Assembly (NCBI GenBank): GCA_951406725.2
Contig: OX597820.1
Span: 80,848,001 to 80,912,000 of the forward strand
Source: Octopus vulgaris
Taxonomy: Eukaryota
Direction: 5' to 3'
Length of the DNA: 64,000 nucleotides
Shown: positions 1 to 39,000 of the stretch, piece after piece
Layout of the letters: each line of letters opens with the position of its first letter
How positions within the stretch are numbered: position 1 is the stretch's first letter
Translations under genes and position numbers: made by a program
Notes under the pieces: generated by a model
What the model was told of the DNA's origin: nothing
The model's input: the letters and a program-made list of their open reading frames with translations, nothing else
Databases searched by the model: none

Positions 1-35
1 AGACACACTTGAAAGCTTAGGAGGTGGTCGCGGAG
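1..35 (+). CDS. 3' part of a class D exon (truncated by the window edge)
   Basis: Encodes ...[11 protein letters not shown], then the donor G|GTTAG at 36. Confidence 0.9.
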
Positions 36-3000
36 GTTAGATATTTGAAATATCGTTGCCTATAGAAAAGTATATATATATGTAACATATGACAATTTAT
101 GTAAGCAAAACATACGTTGTACTGAATGTGATGTAAACGTAATTTAGTTGACAACGCCAGACGATATATAATATTGCGGCAGTATTTCAATTGAACGTTC
201 ATGTAACTCCATGTATATTACATTTGCAATGTCATCGTAGAAATAAGTGGCTCTCCTCAAATGATCTAAGATAATGCTTTCACTATTTCATCGATGTATA
301 TTTGAGAGAATGCCTTCCAATTTACATTGCTTGATGTTTTTCTCTAGGACATAAATCCGTTGATAGCCTACGTGATAAGCTGAAGGAAGCTGTTGAAGCG
401 AAAGACAAAGGCTATTTACAAAAGATTGTACAAGAAAGCGTGTCTGCCGGAATGCCAGAGCTGGATGACGATATCTTGAAAGCTCGAAGTGCGTTAGACA
501 TACTTGAAGGCGGATCTGGAGGTTAGCACATGCATTTAACTGTCGCTTGTGCGTAAATGGCGCCTTAAATATAAATTATAATATCTCTGACATATAATAT
601 CAATGTGTAACAATTTCATTTTTCAAATTCAATATGGTTGTCATTTTGAAATTGTGTTAGAATTTAAAGTAAAATTTTCATCATGTCATCCTGGTGTCAT
701 CGATTTGGTTTGATAGATGTGAAATCAGCGACTTCACTCAGAGACCGGTTAACAGAATTGATGCAAGCGAAAGATGCTGCGGGATTGGACAAAGCCATAT
801 CGGAATGTGAATCGGCAGAATATCCGGAACTTGGACCTCACTTGCGCAAAGCCCGGGATGTACTTGAAACACTGGGTGGTGGGCGTGGAGGTTAGATCTG
901 GTTTCTATTTTTGATGAGATTTCCAGTGCAAAATGCACAATTATTTATGTCATATTACCTGGAGAATTTCAGATATTTATTCATTGGAAAATGAAACGTA
1001 ATATAGAATCTAGCACGTTGGAAAGCTTTTATAATGATATCAACATTACAATGCATGGAAGAGTGCAGAAGCCTGCGTCTGTGAGGGCAATATAAATAAC
1101 TGCATAATATATGTATTCAGAAAAACACACACAAATACACACACTGAAAAATAGGCATACACACACACACAAACACACATACACGCACACCACATCCACA
1201 TTTTATACTTACAATGTAAGCATATATCACTTCCAACACATTCTATAATCTGCAATATATTCGCTTTCAATACATTCTATATTTACGATGTGAGGACATG
1301 TCAGCAGCACTTAATGGAACAGAGACATCATCGTCCTGTAATTCCCGCTTTGGCTTCATCTTCCCATTAGTATAAAAACCTTTGTCAAAGTGATGGTTTT
1401 GTGGAAAAATATTCACGTGTAACTTTTCGTTGAACACACCAATTCTATCCGTGTATGCATGTGTGAATGTGTTTGTGTGTGAAGTGTGTTTAATCTTATT
1501 TATGTTTGTTTGGATTTGATTGTGAGTTTCCGTGCGTTTCGGTGTGTGTTTCTGCCTGCTTCTATTTGTTTGTGTATGATCCTGTATGTGAGATTATTGG
1601 CAAACGGATGTTTTTGCTTGTGTTTTTACTCTTTGGTATTGTGTGCATGACATCACTAAAGACATATACAGAAATTATTTGCAAGTTTGTTTATTGCGTT
1701 GTTAAAATACTCTGTCAGGGACGAAGACGCCCGAATCACTTCGCCGAAAACTAAAGTCTGCTATGAAGCAGGGAGATAAAGATACACTGGACAAAGTAAT
1801 TCACGAATGCATCGCTGCTGGAATGCCAGAATTAGACGTAGACATAAGCGTCGCTCGAGACGTATTGAAAGACGTTAAAATTTCACCTCCAACAGGTACA
1901 TAGCATTCACTTTGCTTTCAAACGCCTATTGTACTAATAGAATATTATACATTCTTCTATTATGATATCGAAACATCATTTGAAAGCGCCTCTTTTATGA
2001 GGCTATTGAAACTTTTCATTAATAATTATGTTTAGCGATGAATGCTGTGTTTCATACACGAAGTAAGTATAACGTTCATAAAACTTCCTTTGCCAGACAT
2101 GAAAACCGTGGAAAGTTTACGAGATCAGCTAGAAAAAGCAACGAAACTGAAAGACAAAGTAGCTCTCAGGCAAATCATTGAAGACTGTGAAGCCGTTGCA
2201 TATCCTGAATTGAGTTTTGATCTGTCAAAAGCGAGAGACACACTTGAAAGCTTAGGAGGTGGTCGCGGAGGTTAGATATTTGAAATATCGTTGCCTATAG
2301 AAAAGTATATATATATGTAACATATGACAATTTATGTAAGCAAAACATACGTTGTACTGAATGTGATGTAAACGTAATTTAGTTGACAACGCCAGACGAT
2401 ATATAATATTGCGGCAGTATTTCAATTGAACGTTCATGTAACTCCATGTATATTACATTTGCAATGTCATCGTAGAAATAAGTGGCTCTCCTCAAATGAT
2501 CTAAGATAATGCTTTCACTATTTCATCGATGTATATTTGAGAGAATGCCTTCCAATTTACATTGCTTGATGTTTTTCTCTAGGACATAAATCCGTTGATA
2601 GCCTACGTGATAAGCTGAAGGAAGCTGTTGAAGCGAAAGACAAAGGCTATTTACAAAAGATTGTACAAGAAAGCGTGTCTGCCGGAATGCCAGAGCTGGA
2701 TGACGATATCTTGAAAGCTCGAAGTGCGTTAGACATACTTGAAGGCGGATCTGGAGGTTAGCACATGCATTTAACTGTCGCTTGTGCGTAAATGGCGCCT
2801 TAAATATAAATTATAATATCTCTGACATATAATATCAATGTGTAACAATTTCATTTTTCAAATTCAATATGGTTGTCATTTTGAAATTGTGTTAGAATTT
2901 AAAGTAAAATTTTCATCATGTCATCCTGGTGTCATCGATTTGGTTTGATAGATGTGAAATCAGCGACTTCACTCAGAGACCGGTTAACAGAATTGATGCA

Positions 3001-36000: not shown

Positions 36001-39000
36001 CTCTCCTCAAATGATCTAAGATAATGCTTTCACTATTTCATCGATGTATATTTGAGAGAATTCCTTCCAATTTACATTGCTTGATGTTTTTCACTAGGAC
36101 ATAAATCCGTTGATAGCCTACGTTGTAAGCTGAAGGAAGCTGTTGAAGCGAAAGACAAAGGCTATTTACAAAAGATTGTACAAGAAAGCGTGTCTGCCGG
36201 AATGCCAGAGCTGGATGACGATATCTTGAAAGCTCGAAGTGCGTTAGACATACTTGAAGGCGGATCTGGAGGTTAGCACATGCATTTAACTGTCGCTTGT
36301 GCGTAAATGGCGCCTTAAATATAAATTATAATATCTCTGACATATAATATCAATGTGTAACAATTTCATTTTTCAAATTCAATATGGTTGTCATTTTGAA
36401 ATTGTGTTAGAATTTAAAGTAAAATTTTCATCATGTCATCCTGGTGTCATCGATTTGGTTTGATAGATGTGAAATCAGCGACTTCACTCAGAGACCGGTT
36501 AACAGAATTGATGCAAGCGAAAGATGCTGCGGGATTGGACAAAGCCATATCGGAATGTGAATCGGCAGAATATCCGGAACTTGGACCTCACTTGCGCAAA
36601 GCCCGGGATGTACTTGAAACACTGGGTGGTGGGCGTGGAGGTTAGATCTGGTTTCTATTTTTGATGAGATTTCCAATGCAAAATGCACAAATTTTTATGT
36701 CATATTACCTGCAGAATTTCAGATATTTATTCACTAGAAAATGAAATGTAATATAGAATCTAGCACGTTGGAAAGCTTTTATAATGATATCAAGATTACA
36801 ATGCATGGAAGAGTGCAGAAGCCTGCGTCTCTGAGGGCAATATAAATAACTGCATAATATATATATTCAGTAAAACACACACTGAAACATAGGCATACAC
36901 ACACACACAAACACACATACACGCACACCACATCTACACTTATTACTCACAATGTAAGCATATATCCCTTCCAAGACATTCTATTATCTGCAATATATTC
37001 GCTTTCAATCCATTCTATATTTACGAAGTGAGTACATGTCAGCAGCACGTAATGAACCAGAGACATCGCCCTCCTATAATTCCCGCTTTGGCTTCATCTT
37101 CCCATAATATAACAACCTTTGTCAAAGTGATGATTTTGTGGAGAATTCTTCACGTGTATCTTCTGGTTGAATGCACGAATTATGTCCCGTGCGTGCGCGC
37201 GCATGTGTGTTTGTGATTTTGTGCGTGCGTATATGTATTTATAATGAAATCAATATTTCAATGCCAGTAAGTGTGCATAATTCGACGTCTGTGTGGGCAA
37301 CATTATATAATTTCGTTAAATGTACATACAAACACACACACATACAGACGCATTTGCGCGCGCGCACAGACTCTCCTTTCGGAAATTCATGCTATACTCA
37401 CGTTTTGAGTGTATTTTGAACGGTCTTCATTCGTCCAGAGAGTTCATCGTCCAGTAATGTCTGCTGGGTCATGATTTTATGTTTGTCGAACTGCCTCTGT
37501 GATTTTTTGTTATTTTTTAAGTTTCGTTCAATTTTTAAGTGTTAGTTGGCTTATACCGCGGGATGTGAGCTGAAGAAGTAGGAGACATTGACTGTTGCAG
37601 AATGTAACTTCAAGTGTGTCTGAATTAGTTTTGAAAATAGACCTAGTTGGACATATAAAAATGTATTTACTGCTATTAGGAGGTCCAGCGTAGTGAATTT
37701 AAATCGATTTCATATTTAAAAGGCTTCAAATGTATAGACACATTTATATTTTCTCTTCGAAAATTACATCCTTAATCAGTTTTATTCACTGAAGGCAAGT
37801 TAACATTATTTTGGGGAAAAGCAATGTAGAATTGCAAGCAAAATTTTCGACAGAGAAATATCCGAGAATTTTATATTCTTTTCTATTCTGGGCACAAGAC
37901 CCGAAATCAAAACATGTTGATGCGTAATTATGTTCAGATCAATGAAAATTTAAGTCGTCCTGATATTTTATTATTACGATTTATTTAATCTCAAGTGTTT
38001 ACATTCTAAACTTTTAGTTCGCACACAGACGCACACAAACACACACACACACACACACACGCACGTGCACACACATGTATGGGTTTGTACACATACATAC
38101 ATAGCTTATCCTGTGATTGATACTTTTAATAATTTTTATTAGGAATTTAAAAAATGAACTTACCACTTTATCATTTCCTATTGTAAGTTATCGACAGAAA
38201 CTTATTTCAGAATATCAATATTTTCTTTATCCTAGAATACAAGTAAGTGGAAAACATATCTTATCTTTTATCTAATCGAAATACAGATTAAGAAAATTTT
38301 ACACTATATCTTATCATTTATGCGTTTTGTTAATATTTATATAGAATTGCAAACATCAGAATCACTACGTGAACAAATGGAGATGGCAATCAAAACCAAA
38401 GACAAATCTGCTTTAGATGAATTGATTAAAAAATGCGAAGAATTTTCTTACCCAGAATTAGGCCCAGAATTATGCAAAGCTCGGAAAAGCTTGCACAAAT
38501 TAACAGGCAGTTTTGGAGGTTAAACTTTTCAGTGAAAATTGCATTACTTTCTTATATTGTACACTATCTTTAAACTTGTAAAATACATATACAGTAATCC
38601 CACGACTATTCCGGGTGTTACATTCCAAAACCTCCCACGGATATAATTAAAATGTAAAAAAAATATAAATACCTATCGGCCTCAGTAACCCACTATATGC
38701 TGAGGAATACCCGATATAAATTTACATATTTTAGCCAGAAAGGTCCGCGATGTACTGATTGCGTGACAGGTGAACCACGATGTATTGAATGCGTGATAAG
38801 TGAACCGCGATGTGGCGAGGGATTACTGTATATATATTTGATTGCACAGTACAAGTGACGCTGATTATAGTATACGTATATTTTCTTAAATAAAATTCAG
38901 TGCATCATACGAGTGCCTATGTGTGTGCATATATGTATGTATGTATGTGTGTATGTATGTATATAAACATGTATGTATGTGTGTGTATATATATATATAT

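Follow-up and report, generated by a model that had tools for sequence, protein, structure and literature searches.

The window analysed here is a stretch of 64,000 nt from Octopus vulgaris (GCA_951406725.2, OX597820.1:80,848,001-80,912,000, forward strand); coordinates are those of the window, with negative values lying upstream. It falls within a gene of 233 kb (about -119,600 to about +113,900), and from position 1 to ~37,000 it consists of repeated sequence in which the spacing of 25-mers has its maximum at 2,230-2,237 bp. This is the unit length of a tandem four-exon array, which is confirmed and comprises 18 head-to-tail units, 16.6 of them inside the window (Table 1). In each unit the exons follow the natural order C-D-A-B, all four are flanked by AG/GT in phase 1/1, and together they add 699 nt to a single open frame that continues across the joined units. 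A preliminary description of the window had reported about 16.6 copies of a four-exon, 233-aa cassette in a unit of ~2,235 bp, each adding 699 coding nt in frame, and these observations were borne out. It had also stated that the array extends upstream; this is so, but only ~1.5 units lie there, the 5' edge being near -3,270 and the first exon C at -2,751, and the 3' end is near 37,220. Judging from its intact exons the array is probably coding.

The exons of units U1 to U17 present no difference from the consensus and the earliest exon change is found in U18, in exon C' at 35,238, in agreement with the earlier statement that exons do not vary before ~35,200. Unit U1, which is the 5' terminal one, shows a single difference from the consensus. 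Pairwise identity among U1-U16 is 99.70% on average (minimum 98.70%), and 33 of their 37 variable columns belong to the B-to-C intron, four to the other three introns and none to the exons. The variants had been described as scattered in the introns; they are intronic, but clustered. Part of the unit variants fall in homopolymers and CA runs.

Table 1. Features of the array and of the sequence that follows it (window coordinates)
Feature	Position	Strand	Remarks
Homogenised tandem array, C-D-A-B exons with introns	1..37223	+	18 units in total, start near -3,270
Exon D of unit U2, 3' end	1..35	+	exon start at -138
Exon A, 174 nt, phase 1/1, GTTAG donor, one ~58-aa helical repeat	348..521	+	every unit
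Exon B, 174 nt, phase 1/1, GTTAG donor	717..890	+	every unit
B-to-C junction intron	891..1718	+	carries 33/37 variable columns
~310-bp block	1167..1479	+	lies in the junction intron; also present at either edge of the array
Exon C, 177 nt, phase 1/1, GTACA donor	1719..1895	+	every unit
Exon D, 174 nt, phase 1/1, GTTAG donor	2097..2270	+	every unit
Rearranged CA-rich stretch, unit U10 alone	19002..19036	+	
Terminal exon C'	35238..35414	+	1 silent change, 1 replacement
Terminal exon D'	35612..35785	+	11 changes, 11/11 replacements, all away from family-common residues
Terminal exon A'	36098..36271	+	one codon altered
Last exon B	36467..36640	+	identical to consensus
Array 3' edge	36641..37223	+	88% identity to junction intron, declining with distance
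Diverged repeat exons r137-r162 (26 complete) and start of r163	38345..64000	+	same gene

The host gene and its head domains

The host gene belongs to the KY/hillarin family, with a transglutaminase-like domain that lacks the catalytic Cys and His, and three Ig-like KY domains. The latter (PF23265) were found as three stretches after the core, with an E-value of 5.7e-60 on this genome's own exon (L001:7988-9352). Transglut_core (PF01841) scored 27.2 and 25.1 bits in the orthologues P0002 and P0003 (cut-off 23), and 12.5 bits (E 0.19) on a single exon of this genome. The named models P0158 and P0153 connect the head exons to the repeat exons of this locus with 95-100% identity. The triad positions, which were set by the spacing of human C225/C236/C243/H267/D282 and of the FAP246 His without aligning human KY, are K145/N187/D202 in P0158, and P0003, P0153 and P0157 have identical residues there; the 57-residue spacing in P0158 is that of human C225/H267/D282. 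The Cys-His-Asp triad of an active KY-type peptidase or transglutaminase is absent. Among solved structures, the ciliary protein FAP246 comes nearest to the head (E 4e-4).

A transglutaminase-like core and Ig-like KY domains are common to KY, hillarin, LTD-1 and Cyk3. Hillarin and LTD-1 proper have in addition an N-terminal LIM domain, for which no match was obtained at E 0.01 in the full-length Argonauta orthologue P0003. The molluscan form P0145 of Haliotis (983 aa) shares the head and the tail as well as a small number of related helical repeats, although it has ~6 repeats against 184, one per exon, in the octopus gene. According to the accessible part of the sources, the catalytic residues are lost in Cyk3 as in the octopus gene (PMC3718969), whereas human KY keeps the triad that the octopus protein has lost (PMC13434911).

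The preliminary description had overlooked the host gene with its 112 diverged sister exons, as well as the indications of alternative splicing. Our literature search found no description of the giant host protein and no paper on LOC115214248. A kyphoscoliosis peptidase is named once in the available portion of an octopus mucus proteome, and the gene meant there may be a different one.

Copy number, edges and age of the array

Read depth had been proposed as the means of recognising an expansion created by the assembly, which would be revealed by support for only one or two copies. Array contigs had depths of 25.9, 29.9, 27.1 and 30.9 times those of single-copy flank contigs in the four runs, and one contig (X11 record 13) spans the head-to-tail junction at array depth. 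As this corresponds to ~26-31 copies in 4/4 runs there is no assembly expansion, and the 18-unit assembly under-counts, if anything. The suspicion that one or two real copies were multiplied artificially might arise from the near identity of the units and from the variants in homopolymers and CA runs, but it is refuted by a depth of 25-35 times single copy in every run together with the junction contig, and its probability is practically nil. The four ratios overlap within their ranges (25-35) and are uncalibrated as copy numbers, so no variation between animals is implied by them. Allelic length variation in steps of 233 aa is plausible.

The edges of the array diverge from its core by 2-18%, and they do so in gradients. 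On the 5' side the differences rise from 0/129 adjoining exon C to 30/196 farther out, and on the 3' side from 10/287 in the first 287 bp after B to 37/299 beyond. Terminal exon D' differs at 11/174 positions and its flanking introns at 5/201 and 10/312. Because both edges have drifted in a gradient and the near-identical core is found at similar depth in runs labelled with three organisms, an old array under homogenisation fits better than a very recent burst. The first proposal had left both possibilities, very recent amplification or ongoing homogenisation, and it is the second which these observations favour. The final round of homogenisation may still be recent.

A very recent single-block burst in this lineage, set off when two older local duplicates of ~310 bp crossed over, would agree with the lack of exon variants and the four non-junction intron variants in U1-U16, with the single difference of U1 and with the ~310-bp block at both edges, which is compatible with a recombination seed. 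Nevertheless, the sequence that the array alone has duplicated (D', its flanking introns and the 287 bp after B) has drifted to the extent given above, against 0.1-1.1% of differences in the single-copy flank contigs of the four runs, and the array occurs at similar depth under the three organism labels. Such a burst is in our view quite improbable. Under homogenisation, unequal crossing-over likely keeps the old array uniform. The 5' portion of the junction intron resembles the intron after the last B and its 3' portion resembles the intron before the first C, and a chimeric B-to-C intron is what the first duplication would leave. Unequal exchange would then expand and homogenise the core, with the end copies escaping.

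The ~310-bp block was also considered as a transposon seed, which was not supported: a 251-bp DNA search of the genome, which skips common words, gave 19 matches and a 28-mer with 3 mismatches also gave 19, all at this locus. No further array copies or paralogous repeat genes were found elsewhere in the genome, as 22/22 DNA matches and 149/149 protein-level matches (150 of 182 candidates scored) lie inside this gene.

In the terminal exons 13/13 residue changes move off the residue that is commoner in the 112 sister repeats (p 2.4e-4 under even odds), a test that is weakened by the array lineage being poorer in private changes also in a three-way intron block of 255 sites (4, against 11 and 20, with 5 sites all different). 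These counts suggest that the terminal copies decay and that the core retains the family residues. The variation among units, 0/699 in exons and 4/708 in non-junction introns, is too little to demonstrate selection.

Repeats, splicing and protein length

The gene contains 184 stop-free repeat exons, each with one repeat of ~58 aa, and their called lengths include 174 nt (n=143) and 177 nt (n=29). The mean identity between repeats is 0.451 at lag 4, 0.427 at lag 2 and 0.37 at lags 1, 3 and 5. With this period of two and four, the array unit is a single super-repeat of the host gene, made up of four repeats. The 112 older repeats around the uniform block are at most 65% identical. A relic C-like exon was looked for in the stretch from the last B to r137, in which the alternation of two types breaks, and none was found.

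A fold model was built on r176-r178 (P0004), sister repeats of the array unit, and gave three helices per repeat (pLDDT 86.9, pTM 0.42); each repeat is thus predicted to form a small bundle of three helices with a Gly-rich linker. A 58-aa repeat is about half of a spectrin repeat. The four array exons had no Pfam match at cut-off, the spectrin-repeat, TPR and MIT helical families included, with weak sub-cut-off hits to B12-binding_2 and DUF6468 alone, and Foldseek gave no match at E 0.001. A wide structural search returned generic three-helix arrangements alone (Z 6.3-7.6, best Z 8.5). The multi-repeat matches P0004 and P0005 are gene models without transcript proof, and P0006-P0009 and P0011 are contig calls with 40-67% identity. 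More distant matches, to protist myosin-like proteins among others (P0063, P0118 and further entries), could reflect generic helical repeats.

The three public models of the gene are split or shortened (1,720-6,596 aa) and retain 10, 16 and 94 repeats, the model with 10 being that of Argonauta, and the array is in none of them (0/3), P0153 skipping from r57 to r140 and P0158 from r57 to r174. GTR donors were found in 8/8 repeats common to all three models against 11/106 of the others (p 1.4e-7), a contrast which may be inflated by the preference of gene predictors for strong donors. A short isoform would use only these eight strong-donor repeats, and in long isoforms blocks of exons with weak (GTY) donors would be added, to a maximum of ~11,800 aa; at 26-32 copies the long isoform would reach 13,700-15,100 aa. 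The array exons, when likely spliced into the long isoform, would add 233 residues per copy to a beads-on-a-string spacer. The gene would then encode an unannotated tether of ~12,000 residues, with a length likely set by splicing and copy number.

The array could also be real and yet largely silent, its exons lying in a skipped block under neutral turnover, and protein length would be unaffected. All three public models skip it, the GTTAG donors of exons A, B and D are weak, and the 11/11 replacements of D' resemble those of a pseudo-exon. Moreover, no transcript or database protein with the array exons was found: an exact look-up of array ORFs in the protein collection gave 0/3 and a longer protein containing exon C was found in 0/18 candidates, both weak negatives. 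However, the core exons retain the open frames, splice sites and invariant residues of the family despite the drifted edges, and the 13 residue changes are confined to the terminal copies. Single-exon relatives of A and C, 86-89% identical, occur in other records and resemble the relatives of exons that the models include, and the 94 repeats taken in by P0153 mostly have the same GTY donors. In addition, gene models commonly lose such arrays through assembly gaps and reads that map to several places. We consider a silent array unlikely. The joint explanation that we prefer, and hold to be fairly probable, is an old array in a KY/hillarin-family gene, kept uniform by unequal crossing-over and lengthening the predicted spacer by 233 aa per copy.

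Tail, possible function and related systems

The protein would be a non-enzymatic tether, running from a KY-type binding head to a tail with which microtubules may associate. The tail aligned with that of Haliotis P0145 with a score of 104, the highest of 1,000 shuffles being 55; PF12777 is present in 25-34% of the members of Atlas neighbours of P0145, and P0145 has weak matches to dynein heavy chains (E 0.056 and 0.18). Through P0145 the octopus tail is possibly like the dynein microtubule-binding domain (PF12777). The site of the tether is most likely muscle, which receives about half of the probability, and otherwise sperm, cilia or neurons. With the same gene and array, the long protein could instead be a microtubule tether outside muscle, in the sperm tail, cilia or axons, its reach scaling with repeat number. 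The tail alignment, the PF12777 neighbours and the dynein matches agree with this, as do the ciliary nature of FAP246 and, in the accessible part of the source, the action of Drosophila hillarin with septin at the cleavage furrow (PMC3718969). The dynein likeness is nevertheless sub-threshold and indirect, the Argonauta tail has no usable match in the Atlas, and vertebrate KY is described in the available text as a Z-disc protein that binds filamin C (PMC6078408). We give the non-muscle tether a rather low probability.

Arrays of this type have been reported before, as far as the accessible excerpts of the sources describe them. The kringle IV type 2 of LPA is likewise an intragenic, intron-containing, near-identical tandem unit amid older diverged sister domains, with a unit of 5.6 kb in 1-40 copies per allele (PMC11462820), whereas the octopus unit has 2.2 kb, four exons and four domains, encodes an intracellular helical repeat and is known here from genomic sequence. 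The triplicate region of NEB is a multi-exon block, 99% identical and copy-variable (PMC12402328), which also consists of whole super-repeats in a giant alternatively spliced structural gene; it has three 10-kb copies against at least 18 of 2.2 kb in octopus, the repeat is unrelated, and nebulin is a thin-filament partner of known role. In the Argiope MaSp2 spidroin, exon and intron units are homogenised together, with a mean intron identity of 97.6% (PMC9779670), but there low-complexity silk repeats fill the gene, and the octopus block lies amid the 112 old repeats. The array type is therefore already known from LPA KIV-2, the nebulin triplicate and spidroins, and what appears to be new is the giant host protein.

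Titin and twitchin are giant spacers made of tandem Ig/Fn3 modules and a kinase domain. The octopus protein would resemble them as a chain of small domains arranged in super-repeats, with a predicted mass in the megadalton range and a length likely tuned by exon choice, but its repeats are predicted to be all-helical three-helix bundles instead of Ig/Fn3. No Pfam match to kinase or Fn3 was obtained in P0003, nor to Ig, Fn3 or kinase in the four array exons. As a more ambitious and tentative proposal, which we judge possible rather than probable, the protein could be a tether of 1.3-1.7 MDa in which 180-240 three-helix bundles join a pseudo-transglutaminase head to a microtubule-binding tail, and the problem solved by titin would have been solved independently with helices alone. 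Length could be controlled at two levels, tissues differing in the weak-donor exon blocks that they include and alleles in the extent of a 233-aa coding macrosatellite. The array could illustrate, while still under way, the duplication of super-repeats from which the gene was built.

The predicted protein would rank among the largest candidates in a cephalopod, in a family known for modest-sized scaffolds of the Z-disc or of cytokinesis. The locus also offers a clean case of repeat-protein growth via super-repeat duplication, with the homogenisation gradient visible. If the long form is made, octopus cells would have in it a concrete candidate for an elastic or spacing element of tunable length, and a natural series of alleles differing by 233 aa would allow the link between length and function to be tested.

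Structure and copy number of the array

The tandem array has a period of 2,230-2,237 bp and each unit carries four exons bounded by AG and GT (174, 174, 177 and 174 nt), which sum to 699 nt in a single open frame, with all the introns of the unit in phase 1. Flanks of 100 kb were fetched on both sides of the window to delimit the array, which comprises 18 units (U1-U18) in the exon order C-D-A-B. The period, the exons and the frame confirm the preliminary description of the array, although the upstream continuation it had announced amounts to only about 1.5 units. The exons of U1-U17 present no differences from the consensus. 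Mean identity among U1-U16 is 99.70%; of their 37 variable columns, 33 fall within the B-to-C intron. Some variants of this junction intron, for instance at unit positions 1460 and 1893, switch between adjacent units (e.g. A/C from U4 to U16), which may reflect a higher-order period of two units; some spacings also lie near 4,470 bp.

The array is real. Contigs of four sequencing runs were compared with one unit and unique flank, contig depth being used solely as a within-run ratio of cleanly aligned contigs since it does not equal copy number. Array contigs had depths of 1,089, 581, 1,328 and 208-233 and flank contigs, in the same order, of 40-43.5, 17.7-21.1, 45.5-53.4 and 6.2-8.9, giving ratios of 25.9, 29.9, 27.1 and 30.9 (ranges 25-35). 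Moreover, one contig of run X11, at array depth, crosses the head-to-tail junction by joining the intron that follows B to the one that precedes C. An expansion artefact of the assembly, for which the preliminary description had proposed a read-depth check, is therefore excluded in four of four runs. By these ratios, which do not bear on variation between animals, the assembly with its 18 units would represent a short allele or under-count the array. Part of the unit was present in 20 of the 24 listed runs, 18 of them with at least half of its words; three organism labels occur among these runs, as does one metagenome in which the share is small.

History of the array

A chimeric structure is seen in the B-to-C intron. 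Over 589 bp at its 5' end it matches the intron following the last B (88%), and over 552 bp at its 3' end the one preceding the first C (86%). The two matching stretches overlap over about 310 bp, a block found at this locus only; either it seeded an initial unequal crossover or it represents a trimmed end of the array. The alternation of the two repeat types along the gene is broken after the last exon B by two consecutive E-type exons, which is consistent with trimming of the array end; no relic exon was found between the last B and the next repeat.

Compared with the core, the 5' edge shows 0/129 differences beside exon C and 30/196 further out, and the 3' edge 10/287 and then 37/299 after the last B. 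U18 has diverged in its terminal exons C', D' and A' and in their introns. In the four runs the array core is nearly unchanged, and contigs of single-copy flank depart from the assembly by 0.1-1.1%. A uniform core, with edges several-fold more diverged than the sampled animals, argues for an older array subject to concerted evolution. Of the two origins first put forward, very recent amplification or ongoing homogenisation, the second is the better fit: the edges and U18 have diverged, and runs under three organism labels share an almost identical core. The split between O. vulgaris and O. sinensis has been dated to 2.5 million years (10.1101/2023.05.16.540928).

The host gene and its repeats

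A profile grown from the four array exons finds 184 stop-free repeats (r1-r184) on the + strand, of which 72 belong to the array and 112 lie beyond it. With few exceptions each repeat fills a single exon, called at 174 nt in 143 cases and at 177 nt in 29. Two double exons are likely the result of intron loss; two contiguous repeats also occur in the contig-called relatives P0006-P0009. Two weak partial matches, left out of the 184, are possibly decayed exons. The four inverted-repeat elements in window introns (410-570 bp; arms of 44-104 nt, 78-97% complementary) we take to be likely MITE or mariner-derived, and the element with CA/TG runs is presumably SINE-like.

Features of the array, the host gene and its surroundings (offsets relative to window start; L004, L012, L014 and L018 are surrounding stretches of the same genome)
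Feature	Location	Remark
Tandem array in the 64-kb window	window base 1 to ~37,200	
Whole array	-2,751 to 36,640	exon C through exon B end
Partial intron copies beyond array exons	out to ~-3,270 and ~37,220	
Break of alternation	window 36640-38345	searched for relic exon
Repeats r1-r184	-81,636 to +109,460	
Host gene	-119,625 to +113,875	
Double exon r12+r13	L004:5167-5514	no intron between repeats
Double exon r16+r17	L004:7809-8156	no intron between repeats
Weak partial match	L012:2517-2597	offset +76,517
Weak partial match	L014:4884-4937	offset +98,884
Inverted-repeat element	window 39534-40058	intronic
Inverted-repeat element	window 40314-40724	intronic
Inverted-repeat element	window 40776-41237	intronic
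Inverted-repeat element	window 45696-46262	intronic
CA/TG-run element, copy 1	window ~39010-39360	
CA/TG-run element, copy 2	window ~43390-43780	
Exon of adjacent gene	L018:3707-4000	
Exon of adjacent gene	L018:5302-5532	zf-RING_15 (KIAA1045 RING finger), E 3.6e-8

Repeats four positions apart (lag 4) share a mean identity of 0.451; the value is 0.427 for lag 2, 0.432 for lag 8 and about 0.37 for lags 1, 3 and 5, and non-array repeats reach 65% at most. Given the alternation of types and the peaks at lags 4 and 2, the amplified unit is a single super-repeat of four repeats, and similar duplications are likely to have enlarged the gene at an earlier stage. No Pfam family reached its cut-off for the array exons. 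AlphaFold2, given three sister repeats (r176-r178 in model P0004) and a 39-row alignment including the array exons, predicted three helices per repeat (mean pLDDT 86.9, dropping at Gly-rich linkers; pTM 0.42), so modelled as folded beads whose mutual orientation is not fixed. Foldseek returned nothing at E 0.001, and a wide structural search only common three-helix arrangements. A helical repeat with similar scores, arranged in long arrays, is carried by the protist-type proteins P0063, P0118, P0112, P0129, P0138 and P0150, two of which have myosin heads; these repeats may be of a generic helical kind. Many single-exon proteins match the repeat at just 48-70% identity, suggesting long versions of the gene in more distant cephalopods.

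Upstream of the repeats lie exons for a transglutaminase-like core and for three Ig-like KY domains. Head, repeats and tail are joined in the public gene models P0158 (Octopus vulgaris, 2,069 aa) with 16 repeats, each 100% identical to the locus, P0153 (O. sinensis, 6,596 aa) with 94 repeats at 95-100%, and P0003 (Argonauta hians, 1,720 aa) with 10 at 63-82%. These identities mark the window as octopus DNA, very probably of O. vulgaris. The predicted product with all repeats would have about 11,800 aa, or a computed 13,700-15,100 aa at 26-32 units, an estimated mass of roughly 1.3-1.7 MDa. In human KY the triad is C225/H267/D282, and C236 and C243 lie close by (PMC13434911). By its residue spacing, the triad positions are taken by K145, N187 and D202 in P0158 as in the three orthologues, and the head is thus likely a pseudo-enzyme, as Cyk3, of the transglutaminase-like kind, has been described to be (PMC3718969). 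The tail aligns with that of P0145, a 983-aa Haliotis relative (score 104 against a highest of 55 in 1,000 shuffles), among whose Atlas neighbours 25-34% of members carry the dynein stalk family PF12777. This likeness is a lead, because the Argonauta tail itself gave no match in the Atlas search.

Possible expression of the array exons and proposed role

The array exons are absent from all three gene models. Splicing may explain why P0153 omits r58-r139, as may an assembly gap or multi-mapping. Protein look-ups for the array exons gave no match, a weak negative. Indirect support for translation comes from the terminal exons, since at 13/13 residue differences the core keeps the family-common residue (p 2.4e-4 at even odds), and from single-exon relatives of exons A and C at 86-89% identity. 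Even odds may be too generous because private intron changes, too, are fewer in the array lineage (4 versus 11 and 20 of 255 sites). Against translation counts D', where 11/11 changes are replacements, so that a unit copy can decay. On balance the array exons are probably included in some isoform.

All repeat exons are frame-symmetric. The eight repeats common to the three models (r1, r2, r174, r180-r184) have a GT-purine donor in 8/8 cases, against 11/106 other distinct repeat exons, 58 of which have GTTAG (p 1.4e-7; script-picked donors, array counted once, first halves of the two fused exons omitted). This would be consistent with a constitutive short form and regulated exon blocks, and a predictor bias to strong donors could inflate the contrast. 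With the common donor G|GTTAG and a phase-1 intron, a kept intron places an in-frame TAG directly after the exon (window and L002-L015); the 106 non-shared exons include 58 GTTAG and 2 GTTAA donors. Such retention could truncate the protein where a repeat ends, or lead to decay.

Our literature search, thin on subscription papers, turned up no publication that deals with the host gene or with a giant cephalopod protein of the KY family. The kind of array is already known from LPA KIV-2 (PMC4378929, PMC11462820), the nebulin triplicate (PMC12402328) and spider MaSp2 (PMC9779670). Muscle is a first guess for the site of action because vertebrate KY is located at the Z-disc with filamin C (PMC6078408). 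In view of the ciliary relative FAP246 and of the tail, a microtubule role may apply instead. The gene product would most likely be a non-enzymatic tether, with a KY-type head and an extensible chain of three-helix bundles, whose tail possibly binds microtubules and whose length would be set by exon choice and by unit number.
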